Positions 806 through 8,192 of a stretch of DNA of 64,000 nucleotides are shown here, in pieces; the first letter of the stretch is position 1; every line of letters begins with the position of its first letter. The notes under the pieces were generated by a model. It had not been told where the DNA came from, ran no database searches, and was given only the letters and a program-made list of their open reading frames with translations. A program made the position numbers and the translations under genes. This stretch comes from Candidatus Poribacteria bacterium (GTDB lineage Bacteria > Poribacteria > WGA-4E > PCPOR2b): NCBI GenBank assembly GCA_965208675.1, contig OZ242351.1, forward strand, positions 1,248,001 to 1,312,000, in the 5' to 3' direction.

Positions 806-3800
806 ATGCACTCACGTTTTAAACGACTCATTGTTCTCGCTGCGGTATTAGCGGTCATCGTCAGCATTATCGCAATTTTCGTCAATATTTACCCCAATGT
901 ACTTTGGTTTAATATGGTCGGCTACGTTTCAGTCTTTACGGAAATTCTATTGGCGAAAGTTGCATTGGGCGCTGCCGTCGGGGGGCTATTTCTGGTCATC
1001 CTTCTCGTCAACCTCTATCTGATTTGGCGTTTCACTCCCTCGCAACTAAGCCCCACCCTTCTTGAATCAATCCCAATCAGCGGCGAATTCGATTTCGATC
1101 TGCGCAAAATGATTTACGTAGTGTTGGCGCTTCTCGCCATTGCATTTAGCGCACTCATGGGATACACAGCGGCAGATCGCTGGGAAATCGCACTTCGATA
1201 TTTCAAAGCAGACGACCTCGCCTTTCAATCGGCTAGCCGCTTATCCGAAACTGTTGAACGCGGCAACACTGATGTTTTAATTTCTCAGTTGGATGTCGAA
1301 GCCAAGGGATTAAAGATAGGAGATAAGGTTGTTATTGAGCAGGAAAATCAAAGCCACGAAGCAAATGTCAATTCTATTAACAGCGCTGGCAACGGTAGAA
1401 GCAAGATTACGTTGAGCCGTCCTCTCGATTTCACCACGACGGAAAAAGCCGTGTTAACCGCGGCTGCCCGCGATCCAATCTTCGACAAAAACGTGAGTTA
1501 TTACGTTTTCAGAATGCCGTTTGAACGCTTTATTTGCGGCAATTTAGTTGGACTGTTTCTGCTAATGACAATCTTTTCCGCTGTGCTCTACTTTTTCCAC
1601 GGCTCTTTAATTGGCGATAATAATCGCTTCGATCCGCCGCAGCGTGTGAAGACACACCTCTTTGTGTTAGTCGGCATTACACTGCTGACTCGCGCTTGGA
1701 ATTACCGCTTTACAATGTTTGACCTGCTCTACGCTACCAACGATGTTGTCCGCGGCGGCGGCGGATATGCAGCCATCCAAGCGCGGTTGCTTGTACTGGA
1801 AATTTTGCTGGCGCTCTCAATCATCTGTGCCATAGTGTTCCTAATCAGCATCTTCTTGCGGCGAATCTCACCCGCTGTCGGTGGTGTTGTAATCCTATTG
1901 ATTGTTGGCTTCTTTGGTCAGGTCTATCCTAGGCTCATTCAAAGGCTCAAGGTCGAACCCAATAAACAGGAGCTTGAATCCAAATACATAAACTTTAACA
2001 TAAAGGCAACTTTATTCGCTTATGATTTGGAAGATAACACCGTGACGGAAGAAGAATATCCCTTGACCGGCGAGTTATCCTACGAGCAGATTACGAATGA
2101 GGAAAATTCCGCAGTCGTAAACAGCGTACGGCTTTGGGATTGGCGTCCGCTCAGGCGTACATTTCGTCAATTACAAGAACTGCGTCGTCAGTATGATTTT
2201 GCCGACGTAGACATTGACCGCTACCCAATGGAAGACGGCGAAGCGCGCCAGGTGATGCTCTCTACACGTGAGTTGGATTTGAACGAACTTCGAAATGAAG
2301 ATTGGTATAAGCGGACCTACGTCTATACTCACGGTTATGGCGCCGTGATGAGCCCCGTCAATGAGATCGATGACGGAAAACCCAAAATGTACATTGAGGA
2401 CATCCCAGTCAATTATGCAGCCGAATGGACGGATAATCGGTTTAATGCCGCGCCAGGACCGCGTATATACTACGGAGAACTCACACCGCATTACGCAATC
2501 GTCCATCCAGGGCGTGATGACAAACTGGAGTTTGATTACCCTGAACAGGGGCAGGGCTATGCCAAATATTCGTACACTGGACAGGGCGGGGTTCAACTCG
2601 CATCATTCTTGCGCAGGTTCGTTTACATGCTGAAATTTAACAATGAGCTAAATTTCATCCTATCGAGAGAAATTACATCTACTAGTCGGGTGCTCTATCA
2701 TCGAAACATACAAGAGCGTGTTCAAAAAATTGCACCGTTCTTACGATTCGATAAAGACCCCTATGCGGTTATTCACAACGGCAGGCTTATCTGGATGATC
2801 GACGCATACACGACAACGAGACGTTATCCGTATTCCGCCCCCATGCCGGATGTGGTGCGGGCAACTATTGCGGAACGGCAGGGAAGACGCGCGGCAAGCC
2901 GAATCGTCGGCAGCGAACAACCGTGGGATGGAAATTATATTCGAAATGCCGTAAAGGTGACTGTGGACGCCTACGATGGCACTGTGGATTTCTATCTCAT
3001 GAAGCGCGAAAACGACCCCATCGTAGAGTGCTACAACCGTATTTTCCCCAATCTCTTCAAACCATTTGACGACATGCCCGAAGATCTCAAAAGCCACATC
3101 CGCTATCCAACCACAATGTTCCTCATTCAAGCTCGGATGTATCAGGATTATCACATGAAAGACCCAACGACCTTCTATGCACAAGAAGACCCCTGGGAAA
3201 TCGGTAAAGAGGTTTACGACACGACTGAACGCCCCCGTAATCAGCCTATTGCGCCGCCCAGTCCCTTCCCGACCCAACAAGTGAGCCCACAGCCGCTCTT
3301 GACAAATGAACAAGAAGTCGCACCCTATTACGTTGTAATAAAACTGCCGGGCGAAGAACAGGCGGAATTCATGCTCATGCTTCCTTTCACCCCAAAGAGC
3401 AAGTTAAATCTCACCGCTTGGCTCGCTGCAAGATGCGATTTGCCGCAATACGGCCAACTGCTCGTTTATCGTTTTCCAAAAGGAAAACTTGCCCCTGGAC
3501 CAATGCAGGTCGAAAATTTCATTACCCAAAAACCTGAAATTTCCGAACAGATTAGCTTATGGAATAGGGAAGGATCGCGCGTGTTGCGTGGAAATTTGTT
3601 AATTATCCCCATGCACAACGCCCTATTGTACGTAGAGCCAATCTACATTCAATCGGAGAATGAGGATTCGGCAATACCTGAACTCCGTCGTGTCGTCATC
3701 GGCTATAAAGAAAACGTCGTCTGGGGCGCGAGTTTTGACGAAGCCTTGGTCAAGATGTTTGGAAGAACCGCGGCAGCGGGCGTCCCCCCGGCGGCGGAAC

Positions 3801-4006
3801 TCGAAACTGTCGAACAGAAAAAAGACGTAGAGCAAGTAATCGCCCACGCCTCAAATCAAATCTCAATTTCCGAACTGGCGAAAGATGCAAACCGATACTT
3901 TGAACGGGCCGAAGCAGCGAGAAGAGCGGGGAAGTGGGATGAATACGGGCGTTTTCACAATCTGCTGGAGCAGACATTGAAGCAGTTGGACGAAAACGCA
4001 AATTAG
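806..4006 (+). CDS. UPF0182 family membrane protein
   Basis: N-terminal multi-TM region plus the motifs DPIF, RLWD, DVDIDRY, YTHGYG, PRIYYGE, NYIRNAVKVTVDAYDG, RGNLL and LYVEPIY. Confidence 0.93.
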   Translation: MHSRFKRLIVLAAVLAVIVSIIAIFVNIYPNVLWFNMVGYVSVFTEILLAKVALGAAVGGLFLVILLVNLYLIWRFTPSQLSPTLLESIPISGEFDFDLRKMIYVVLALLAIAFSALMGYTAADRWEIALRYFKADDLAFQSASRLSETVERGNTDVLISQLDVEAKGLKIGDKVVIEQENQSHEANVNSINSAGNGRSKITLSRPLDFTTTEKAVLTAAARDPIFDKNVSYYVFRMPFERFICGNLVGLFLLMTIFSAVLYFFHGSLIGDNNRFDPPQRVKTHLFVLVGITLLTRAWNYRFTMFDLLYATNDVVRGGGGYAAIQARLLVLEILLALSIICAIVFLISIFLRRISPAVGGVVILLIVGFFGQVYPRLIQRLKVEPNKQELESKYINFNIKATLFAYDLEDNTVTEEEYPLTGELSYEQITNEENSAVVNSVRLWDWRPLRRTFRQLQELRRQYDFADVDIDRYPMEDGEARQVMLSTRELDLNELRNEDWYKRTYVYTHGYGAVMSPVNEIDDGKPKMYIEDIPVNYAAEWTDNRFNAAPGPRIYYGELTPHYAIVHPGRDDKLEFDYPEQGQGYAKYSYTGQGGVQLASFLRRFVYMLKFNNELNFILSREITSTSRVLYHRNIQERVQKIAPFLRFDKDPYAVIHNGRLIWMIDAYTTTRRYPYSAPMPDVVRATIAERQGRRAASRIVGSEQPWDGNYIRNAVKVTVDAYDGTVDFYLMKRENDPIVECYNRIFPNLFKPFDDMPEDLKSHIRYPTTMFLIQARMYQDYHMKDPTTFYAQEDPWEIGKEVYDTTERPRNQPIAPPSPFPTQQVSPQPLLTNEQEVAPYYVVIKLPGEEQAEFMLMLPFTPKSKLNLTAWLAARCDLPQYGQLLVYRFPKGKLAPGPMQVENFITQKPEISEQISLWNREGSRVLRGNLLIIPMHNALLYVEPIYIQSENEDSAIPELRRVVIGYKENVVWGASFDEALVKMFGRTAAAGVPPAAELETVEQKKDVEQVIAHASNQISISELAKDANRYFERAEAARRAGKWDEYGRFHNLLEQTLKQLDENAN

Positions 4007-4036
4007 CAACCAACAACTAACACGGAGGTGACTCAA

Positions 4037-4291
4037 ATGGGACTCGACTGGAAACCGCGTCACCGGGATTTAGTCATTGGCGGCATTCCTTGGCTTGCCC
4101 GAATCACGGATAAAGCGCGCGCCAAATTGAACGGGACTATCGGCGACTACATTTACCCGTGACCAATGGATCAATCAGTATTCCTGGAGGAATACAAGCT
4201 CACAGGCGACGAGTTTATTGAAATCGTAAAAAATAATCCGTCAGACGATGACATGATTGCTGCGATTCGTTCGCTGGCGAAAGAACAATAA
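4037..4291 (+). CDS. DUF5069-like small protein with in-frame TGA (4160-4162); candidate selenoprotein, 84 aa
   Basis: Strong RBS GGAGGTG (4024-4030) and ATG at 4037. Translation: MGLDWKPRHRDLVIGGIPWLARITDKARAKLNGTIGDYIYP-U-PMDQSVFLEEYKLTGDEFIEIVKNNPSDDDMIAAIRSLAKEQ. It matches the DUF5069 pattern (R..DKARA...GT.G.Y.YPCP.D) on both sides of the TGA. Confidence 0.8.
4178..4195 (+). promoter_or_regulatory. Putative bacterial SECIS hairpin
   Basis: GTATTCC-TGGA-GGAATAC is a perfect 7-bp stem. The apical loop has G at position 2 and starts 22 nt after the in-frame TGA. Confidence 0.65.
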
Positions 4292-4342
4292 TTCGAGTTG
4301 TTATCGTAACAAGTGCATTACTCATGTTGGAGATGTCTTTAA

Positions 4343-5407
4343 TTGAATCTGGCAGACTACCGAAATCAGATCGATCAACTTGATGATCAAATCTTGGATC
4401 TCTTGCTTCAACGCGCGCGAATTGCCAAAAAGGTAGGAGACTTCAAAGAAAGCGCAAACACGGGGACTGTGTATGCGCCGCACCGTGAAAAAGAGATTCT
4501 GACTCGGTTGAAGGCGCGCAACAGGGATGGATTTCCACCCATTGCCCTTGAGAAAATTTATAAAGAGATTATTTCGGCTTGCAGATTTTTAGAAAAGCCA
4601 TTGCGCATTGCATACCTCGGCCCCGTTGGTAGTTTTGGGCATGCAGCCAGCCTGCGCCATTTTGGCGGCTCGGCAAATTTCATTCCGCAATCGCCTCAAA
4701 CCGATATCTTCGTAGAGGTCGAAGCTAGCAGGGCCGATTACGGAGTGGTTGCAATCGAAAATTCCACATACGGTAGTGTGCGCGACGTTTTGGAAATGTT
4801 CCAGCACTCGCAGTTGCAAATTTGCGCCGAAATCTTCCTGCCAATTGATCACAACCTGCTCTCAAATTCTCCACTGAACGAAGTCGTTAAAGTCTACTCA
4901 CATCCGCAACCCTTTGCGCAATGCAGAAAATGGCTTCATCAAAACTTGGAAGGTGTTCAACAAATTGAAGTCGCAAGTACGTCTGAGGCCGCGCGAATAG
5001 CCGCCGACCAACACGGTGCCGCGGCAATCGCTAGCAAGCTGGCAGCGGAAATCTATGATTTGCCTATTTCCAACCCGTCAATCATGGACGACCCAAGTAA
5101 CACAACCCGCTTCCTTGTTATTGGATGGCACGCCGCGGAAAGAAGCGGAAACGACCGGACATCAATCCTTTTCGCTATTAAAGACAAAGTCGGTGCGCTC
5201 TATGAAGTCCTCAGTGTCTTGGAGCGCAAAGGTATCAATATGAGTCGGATTGAATCCTTGCCCGCCCGAACAAAAGCTTGGGAGTACGTTTTCTTTGTTG
5301 ATTTTGATGGGCACCCCGAAGATGAAAACGTCCGAACCGCTCTAGACGAGATTGAAGAGCTATGCGTGCTCGCAAAAATCCTTGGGGTTTATCCGTGTGC
5401 TTCCTAG
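4343..5407 (+). CDS. pheA: Bifunctional chorismate mutase/prephenate dehydratase
   Basis: N-terminal CM domain (RNQIDQLDDQILDLL..R), AYLGP.GS, IENSTYG, SHPQ, NTTRF, and a C-terminal ACT domain (IES.P...WEYVFFVD). Confidence 0.95.
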   Translation: MNLADYRNQIDQLDDQILDLLLQRARIAKKVGDFKESANTGTVYAPHREKEILTRLKARNRDGFPPIALEKIYKEIISACRFLEKPLRIAYLGPVGSFGHAASLRHFGGSANFIPQSPQTDIFVEVEASRADYGVVAIENSTYGSVRDVLEMFQHSQLQICAEIFLPIDHNLLSNSPLNEVVKVYSHPQPFAQCRKWLHQNLEGVQQIEVASTSEAARIAADQHGAAAIASKLAAEIYDLPISNPSIMDDPSNTTRFLVIGWHAAERSGNDRTSILFAIKDKVGALYEVLSVLERKGINMSRIESLPARTKAWEYVFFVDFDGHPEDENVRTALDEIEELCVLAKILGVYPCAS

Positions 5408-8010: not shown

Positions 8011-8085
<75 letters not shown>

Positions 8086-8107: not shown

Positions 8108-8192
8108 TGGGCGAGGAGGGATTCGAACCCTCACACCCGGTTATGGGCGATGGATTTTAAGTCCATTGTGTCTGCCATTCCACCACTCGCCC
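8108..8192 (-). tRNA. tRNA-Leu (TAA)
   Basis: GGGCGAGTGGTGGAATGGCAGACACAATGGACTTAAAATCCAT..., long variable arm, GGTTCGAATCC T-arm. No encoded CCA. Confidence 0.93.

Follow-up and report, generated by a model that had tools for sequence, protein, structure and literature searches.

A conserved in-frame UGA and a very small downstream hairpin mark a short-form DUF5069 gene of Candidatus Poribacteria as a probable selenoprotein gene

The stretch of DNA analysed here (the window) comprises 64,000 nt of a Candidatus Poribacteria genome (assembly GCA_965208675.1, contig OZ242351.1, positions 1,248,001 to 1,312,000), and coordinates below are window positions unless another contig is named. On its plus strand, the list of open reading frames (ORFs) of at least 60 amino acids contains nothing between a UPF0182-family gene and a pheA-type gene. 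This gap is filled by a small gene of the DUF5069 family that is interrupted by a single in-frame TGA: an ATG at 4037 is followed by 41 sense codons, the TGA, 42 further sense codons and a TAA at 4289-4291 (Table 1). An initial annotation, made from the letters alone, had proposed that the gene encodes a selenocysteine (Sec)-containing DUF5069 protein, with the UGA at the place of a conserved cysteine and, just behind it, a hairpin resembling a selenocysteine insertion sequence (SECIS). Every statement it made at the sequence level holds, from the Shine-Dalgarno-like sequence and the ATG, TGA and TAA codons to the stem, the loop and the 22-nt spacing between TGA and loop. It had also described the gene as filling the UPF0182-pheA gap and as missed by the ORF track, in agreement with the ORF list and with the Pfam assignments of both neighbours, and the protein as devoid of other cysteines, in agreement with the translation, where the number of cysteines outside residue 42 is zero. 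The conserved start of the gene is the M-G-L-D-W start. In two genomes of the same genus (L021 in G002 and L024 in G003) an extra in-frame ATG lies 15 nt upstream of the conserved ATG and would lengthen the protein by five residues; this ATG is absent in the genome of the window.

Table 1. Features of the DUF5069 locus and other genes of the same genome that carry an in-frame TGA (window positions, except for the last three rows, which refer to C1).
Feature	Position	Strand	Basis or remark
GGAGGTG, Shine-Dalgarno-like	4024-4030	+	6 nt upstream of start codon; direct sequence reading
Short-form DUF5069 gene, 84 codons, UGA codon 42 proposed as Sec, TAA stop	4037-4291	+	Translation, Pfam, orthologues
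In-frame TGA, proposed Sec codon, residue 42	4160-4162	+	Cys-aligned, conserved, variant-free across four studies
Candidate bacterial SECIS hairpin, stem 4178-4184 with 4189-4195, loop UGGA 4185-4188	4178-4195	+	Sequence and comparative data
Upstream neighbour, UPF0182-family gene	806-4006	+	Pfam PF03699, 815.9 bits; 30 nt separate its end from the start codon
Downstream neighbour, pheA-type chorismate mutase/prephenate dehydratase	4343-5407	+	Pfam CM_2, PDT, ACT
selD (L010)	C1:4649539-4650462
Four AhpC/TSA genes (L163-L166)	C1:1464681-1465049, 4351412-4351753, 4575962-4576351, 150211-150594
Rdx gene (L170)	C1:2490796-2491011

The readthrough protein matched the Pfam profile of DUF5069 (PF16798) with 56.1 bits (E = 5.7e-15) against a cut-off of 27, so that the membership proposed by the initial annotation was confirmed. 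As the match aligns residues 7-82 with profile positions 4-78 of 133, that is, with the N-terminal 60% of the profile, we refer to the protein as a short form; short forms of DUF5069 have 81-89 residues. A scan of the same protein against NCBIfam with E up to 1 gave no match, selenoprotein-specific NF04xxxx models included. Among 55 close database homologues, position 42 is Cys in 38 and Trp in 11, and four more end just before this column, while the remaining two were not parsed by the motif used to locate the position. The UGA thus falls exactly at the Cys column and similarity continues past it, as had been claimed. All 11 Trp-containing homologues look like Poribacteria sequences that retain an F-L-E-E motif, and their Trp would correspond to a TGA that the depositing pipelines read with a different genetic code. 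A deep search, from which the best 150 representatives were considered, gave 149 aligned stretches, of which 113 have Cys at column 42, 21 have Ser and 15 a different residue; 12 more proteins from this search end exactly at "...YP".

An AlphaFold (AF2) model of the readthrough protein, with a predicted local distance difference test (pLDDT) value of 84.8, forms a single domain that spans both halves and consists of a short beta-hairpin followed by four helices at residues 20-31, 43-50, 57-66 and 70-83. Since the second of these begins at residue 43, residue 42 is placed by the model at the N-terminal end of helix 2. Comparison with Foldseek aligned the model to chain A of Protein Data Bank (PDB) entry 3omd, an uncharacterised protein from Leptospirillum rubarum and the one family member with a solved structure, with a query-normalised template modelling (TM) score of 0.78, a root mean square deviation of 1.8 Å and 43% identity, and 3omd has a Cys at the column aligned with residue 42. 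The Poribacteria protein shares with PF16798 and 3omd the profile match, the fold and the Cys/Sec column, and differs from them in being a short form and in its proposed Sec in place of Cys. No other entry matched in the PDB fold search at E 0.001 or better; with 3omd as the sole match, the fold gives no functional analogy. Neither a thioredoxin-like fold nor a second redox Cys two residues away from the proposed Sec was found in the sequence, the model or the PDB search.

The TGA is conserved far beyond the genome of the window. In an order-level set of 61 genomes from 15 genera and 4 families (G000 included), each of the 61 has a single orthologue, at 64-99% identity, with one in-frame TGA and no second, always at the same codon. 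A phylum-wide sample of 151 genomes, queried with a natural Cys homologue, contained the gene in 145 and gave no match in six. The TGA was present in 140 of the 145 gene-bearing genomes, 139 of them from the order of the window and one from family f7, and the five genomes with a form lacking the stop all belong to family f5. Of the named genomic loci, 80 in all, TGA occurs in 30, whose records are titled Poribacteria in 29 cases and "uncultured bacterium" in one, and TGC or TGT in the other 50; one of these Cys-codon loci is from Poribacteria and the rest are from Chloroflexota, Limnochordia, Bacillota, Clostridia, Brocadiaceae or unclassified sources. Metagenome loci were found with a truncated homologue (44 loci, 43 of them parsed), and divided into 20 with TGA and 23 with Cys codons. 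Several lineages clearly distinct from the Poribacteria proteins are represented among the metagenomic TGA forms.

Additional DUF5069 genes occur in other genera of the phylum (for example at G008:C562:23753-24355 and G047:C8:484752-487251). Some are full-length paralogues, in frames of 139-162 amino acids, and others, in frames of 285-576 amino acids, encode two or three DUF5069 domains in tandem; none of them has an internal stop. In the genus of the window (G000-G003), the single short TGA form is the sole DUF5069.

Bacterial Sec insertion is an established pathway that employs SelB, Sec-tRNA(Sec) and a hairpin within the gene itself. Downstream of the TGA in the window, GTATTCC and GGAATAC form a perfect stem of 7 bp around a TGGA loop that starts 22 nt past the TGA. 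When 60 orthologues were analysed with RNAalifold, a UGGA loop closed by a 5-bp stem, GUUCC/GGAAC, was obtained, and not one of the 300 cells of this core is broken. Three one-sided changes occur in it, all of them to G-U wobbles, and one pair is A-U instead of G-C in the genus of the window; the two outer pairs that extend the stem to 7 bp in the window are formed in only about half of the distinct rows. The hairpin is present in the TGA form of family f7 and absent from the six Poribacteria Cys forms examined (the five f5 forms and L112). Of the divergent TGA lineages found, most also have a minimal core, UUCC-UGGA-GGAA, 18-19 nt past the UGA.

According to the legend of Fig. 2 of a 2026 review (PMC13188914), bacterial SECIS (bSECIS) elements have an apical loop of 3-9 nt, an upper stem of 4-16 bp, a G in the first two loop positions, a distance from UGA to loop of 16-37 nt and a minimum free energy of -7.5 kcal/mol or lower. 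The window hairpin lies within all the geometric ranges of that legend, with a 4-nt loop, a 7-bp stem, a G at the second loop position and a spacing of 22 nt. Over 75 TGA genes, from which L081 was omitted as it contains N (it was also omitted from one hairpin alignment), the spacing was 19 nt in 66, 18 nt in five and 22 nt in four, and the stem measured 5-7 bp in 74.

Covariation was analysed in a set of 37 sequences, made up of 25 of the 60 orthologue rows, chosen by eye for distinctness, and 12 metagenomic TGA forms (the 13 unique ones except L200). Three outer pairs vary on both sides in this set, one of them, for example, occurring as G-C in 28, C-G in six, A-U in one and G-U in one. Paired cells amounted to 87.6%, against 76.3 ± 1.4 in shuffled alignments, and the covariation score was 0.279, a value reached by none of 500 shuffles (0.109 ± 0.016), although these counts are not to be taken as probabilities because the sequences are related. 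Registers slid along the same set reached at most 63.7% pairing and a score of 0.127.

Several observations weigh against the hairpin as the functional element. The covariation signal rests on the outer three pairs, because the 5-bp core hardly varies within Poribacteria, and on metagenomic sequences of unknown taxonomy, whose kinship inflates the shuffle statistics. Folded by itself, the hairpin has an energy of -6.6 kcal/mol in the window, the value for the 5-bp core and the median over the 75 TGA genes both being -4.2 kcal/mol, and only 7 of the 75 reach the -7.5 kcal/mol of the review's legend. Folding of the 61 nt from 4155 to 4215 gave z = -0.91, with 35 of 200 shuffles folding at least equally well, and an Rfam scan of positions 3900-4450 with E up to 1 returned no match. 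A generic search for stems of at least 5 bp after the codon did not separate Sec from Cys forms, since stems of 5-9 bp also arise by chance in Cys genes of high GC content, and was dropped as a criterion for lack of discrimination. When the 48 nt past the UGA were folded with the hairpin enforced, the window reached -9.6 kcal/mol and 73 of the 75 genes attained the threshold of that legend, the extra pairs involved being unverified. With so ordinary a folding energy, the case for the hairpin is comparative and not thermodynamic. Of the SECIS-like hairpin described in the initial annotation, what stands is a conserved element with wobble and compensatory changes, and what has to be qualified is its strength, which is low when it is folded alone.

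The weak folding also lends some weight to the alternative in which Sec is inserted but GUUCC-UGGA-GGAAC is kept by selection on the peptide F-L-E-E, the true SECIS being another or a larger structure. The stem codons do encode a conserved peptide, the isolated hairpin yields only -4.2 to -6.6 kcal/mol, and several orthologues can add lower stems around it. However, the synonymous entropy of codons +5 to +9 is 0, 0, 0.12, 0 and 0.12 bits, compared with 1.4-2.1 bits for Leu and about 1.0 bit for Glu elsewhere in the gene, and third-position diversity in the hairpin codons falls to 0.020, against 0.48 elsewhere. Selection on the peptide cannot account for synonymous sites that are nearly frozen. 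Furthermore, the Cys forms do not keep F-L-E-E, whereas some divergent TGA forms change the peptide to F-L-E-G or F-L-D-G and retain most or all of the pairing. We consider this alternative improbable, even if it survives better than the others discussed below.

A further observation concerns a TGA form from a Bacillota- or Clostridia-like lineage (L182), in which CGGUUUC and GAAGCCG pair over 7 bp around a 5-nt loop, UGGAU. Two Cys relatives of it (L122 and L180) have a similar stem at the equivalent place, CGGUUUUU-GGC-GGAAGCCG, of 8 bp including wobbles. This stem could be a fossil SECIS left after a recent switch from Sec to Cys, or could have arisen by chance in GC-rich DNA.

The genome of the window, a single contig of 4.89 Mb with an estimated completeness of 96%, encodes the machinery that Sec insertion requires. 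The genes selA (527 bits) and selB (367 bits) and the tRNA-Sec (selC, 77.5 bits) share one cluster, and selD (376 bits) was also found, all of them with scores that exceed the curated cut-offs, which answers the question raised by the initial annotation of whether Sec genes are present. The selD gene itself has an in-frame TGA, and a single in-frame TGA is also found in four AhpC/TSA genes and in one Rdx (SelW-like) gene of this genome (Table 1), which is rich in selenoproteins and thus holds at least six such genes besides that of DUF5069. Read by eye, small hairpins with G-containing loops lie 17-22 nt past the UGA in these genes, that of selD being GAUCC-GGG-GGAUC. Otherwise TGA is an ordinary stop in this genome, closing 677 of the 2005 frames of at least 300 codons.

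These data bear on whether UGA42 might be read through without Sec, through insertion of Trp or Cys by a near-cognate tRNA or with TGA serving as a sense codon. The Trp at the column in 11 of the 55 close homologues would fit such decoding, but homologues without the TGA carry Cys and not Trp there, and a codon that ends 677 long frames is not a sense codon in general. The full Sec machinery is present, and a conserved hairpin at SECIS distance accompanies the TGA and is missing from the Poribacteria Cys forms examined. Readthrough of this kind is therefore very unlikely.

A nonsense-mutated pseudogene of a Cys-form DUF5069, with a downstream half that is no longer translated, is how gene callers treat the locus, and four close homologues stop before the column and 12 representatives end at "...YP". 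The conservation data speak otherwise. The TGA has been retained in 140 of the 145 genomes that have the gene, across several families, and among the 61 orthologues no frameshifts or extra stops were seen in the downstream half. In 60 orthologues, diversity at codon positions 1, 2 and 3 was 0.168, 0.098 and 0.481 upstream of the TGA and 0.124, 0.094 and 0.485 downstream of it, hairpin codons left out, so that coding constraint behind the TGA is normal and equal to that in front of it. Contigs from four independent sponge-metagenome studies cover the gene fully, and 19 of the 20 variant sites that they contain in the coding sequence are third codon positions. On this basis the pseudogene explanation is effectively refuted. 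None of these contigs has a variant at 4160-4162 or 4178-4195, which also excludes that the TGA is an assembly error, a concern that the initial annotation had raised.

Nor is there any real prospect that the locus holds two small genes, or a 41-residue peptide followed by reinitiation of a separate C-terminal peptide, since an ATG does occur two codons past the TGA in the genus of the window, but in 39 of 60 orthologues none of the eight codons behind the TGA is ATG, GTG or TTG, the Pfam domain, the structural model and the 3omd alignment each span both halves, and the Cys forms are single uninterrupted ORFs.

Taken as a whole, sequence comparison makes it very probable that 4037-4291 encodes an 84-residue cytoplasmic short-form DUF5069 protein in which UGA42 is decoded as Sec. 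The central claim of the initial annotation, that of a Sec-containing DUF5069 member, is supported by the family assignment, the Cys column, the machinery, the conservation and the hairpin. In the mechanism that we propose, a ribosome arriving at UGA42 would be served by the intragenic hairpin (with the core GUUCC-UGGA-GGAAC, lengthened to 7 bp in this genome), which would recruit SelB with Sec-tRNA(Sec); Sec would then be inserted and the 42 further codons translated. In the resulting protein, Sec42 would stand within the motif Y-x-Y-P-U-P-x-D, at the predicted N-terminal end of helix 2 in a small non-thioredoxin fold, where it would substitute for the Cys found in most family members.

Residue 42 is most likely the single nucleophilic or redox-active residue of the protein, because Sec is placed preferentially in catalytic redox sites, as the review states (PMC13188914), and because the residue lies at a helix N-terminus and has its place in an invariant Y-x-Y-P motif. 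The tyrosines of this motif are Tyr38 and Tyr40, and the protein also has conserved basic residues (R8, R22, K26 and R28). Other findings pull away from a redox role. In the wider family, column 42 is Ser in 21 and another non-Cys residue in 15 of the 149 stretches, and the Ser variants imply that not all DUF5069 proteins work through Cys or Sec; a second Cys and a thioredoxin fold are both absent; and no shared partner or redox enzyme was found in the gene neighbourhoods compared, many of whose clusters are spurious overlapping ORFs. The initial annotation had spoken of a single catalytic redox residue. That the protein has no other Cys is correct, but the wording was too strong for what is a deduction, given the Ser found at this column in 21 of the 149 stretches.

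Regarding the neighbourhood itself, at 26 of the 30 TGA-form loci the gene is preceded, in the same orientation, by a UPF0182-like ORF, the sole conserved neighbour of the TGA forms. The pheA gene does not recur in other genera, in which the gene is followed by a WD40 protein, and the Chloroflexota Cys forms lie near NIF3, DUF2344 and GNAT genes. In distant relatives, DUF5069 is fused to a methyltransferase, an AI-2E transporter, a dienelactone hydrolase, a cupin, DUF2249 or a CO-dehydrogenase flavoprotein C-terminal domain; these partners are varied and share no single functional theme. Scans of positions 3700-4700 found no promoter-like site and one minus-strand terminator-like site within the UPF0182 gene, and shuffled sequences give no fewer such sites. 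Further along the window, positions 8011-8084 and 8108-8192 of the minus strand hold a long-arm, ordinary tRNA-Leu(UAA) beside a tRNA-Met(CAU). A match to the tRNA-Sec model in the window (42.5 bits, below the gathering score) corresponds to this tRNA-Leu(UAA) and was rejected, the true tRNA-Sec being located elsewhere, adjoining selB.

As a broader and more tentative proposal, short-form DUF5069 may constitute a so far unrecognised selenoprotein family that extends across several phyla, with a lone catalytic selenol at a helix N-terminus of an all-helical, non-thioredoxin fold, and might represent a new redox, persulfide-carrier or selenium-carrier type. If this were true, an active site would be assigned for the whole DUF5069 family; the recurrence of the minimal core would imply either joint spread of the Sec form and its SECIS or great age of both; and the F-L-E-E peptide, seen only in Sec forms, would be dictated by the RNA element.

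A full-text literature search found no paper on DUF5069 or PF16798, supplementary candidate lists being outside its scope; for 3omd it gave unrelated uses of the abbreviation and nothing else, and for selenoproteins in Poribacteria it listed a single paper, on [NiFe] hydrogenases. PF16798, the sole Pfam match of the protein, is not among the 119 prokaryotic selenoprotein families and subfamilies in Table 1 of the review (PMC13188914); direct scanning covered Pfam and NCBIfam models, and not the families that the table lists by CDD or PANTHER identifier alone. The nine new families of the deep-Sep paper (PMC12013277) do not include DUF5069 either; Table S2 of that paper and the candidate lists from groundwater metagenome-assembled genomes could contain it. 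The initial annotation did not know DUF5069 as an established selenoprotein family, and both that table and the literature searches agree with it. By contrast with PF16798, the selD, AhpC/TSA and SelW-like Rdx families are already in Table 1 of the review (PMC13188914). All in all, the comparative evidence strongly favours a genuine, conserved selenoprotein gene outside the current catalogue that would use standard bacterial Sec insertion with a very small SECIS.

Such a gene offers the first functional clue for DUF5069, a family with a crystal structure and a presence in many phyla but no literature. As Sec almost always occupies catalytic redox positions, the aligned Cys is the residue to mutate and assay in other members. 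It would also add to the catalogue a single-Sec, non-thioredoxin example, most known families being thioredoxin-like. In addition, the very small and conserved hairpin, with its natural compensatory variants in an uncultured phylum of sponge symbionts, would suit a study of minimal SelB recognition.

The case also exposes a systematic annotation error, as databases hold this gene either cut off at 41-46 residues, with spurious N-terminal extensions added, or with Trp at the Sec position, and the Poribacteria selenoproteomes are consequently under-counted. In public collections the wrong forms are of two kinds, namely proteins with Trp at the Sec position (11 of the 55 close homologues) and stubs ending in "...YIYP", some with spurious N-terminal extensions (four of the 55 plus the 12 representatives). 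The mis-annotated database proteins are P0002-P0021, P0043, P0049, P0050 and P0053.

With respect to known systems, most catalogued selenoproteins are thioredoxin-like or have UxxC, CxxU or TxxU motifs, whereas the DUF5069 protein is predicted to be helical and to contain a lone Sec that has no second Cys to pair with. The evidence is of the same kind as that for DUF523, DUF1858, DUF3179, DUF166 and DUF1573 (PMC13188914), that is, a computational prediction from a Sec/Cys pair and a bSECIS-like hairpin, but DUF5069 is a different family, with PF16798 outside the table. With selD, the AhpC/TSA peroxiredoxins and Rdx of the same genome, the DUF5069 gene shares a Cys-aligned UGA, a small G-loop hairpin 17-22 nt downstream and the selA, selB, selC and selD genes. 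With the SECIS of the E. coli fdhF type, the candidate element has in common a stem-loop just 3' of the UGA within the coding region and a G near the start of the loop. Its stem of 5-7 bp and loop of 4 nt make it much shorter than the E. coli element. The best-characterised bSECIS elements, according to the review, are those of the E. coli formate dehydrogenase genes (PMC13188914).

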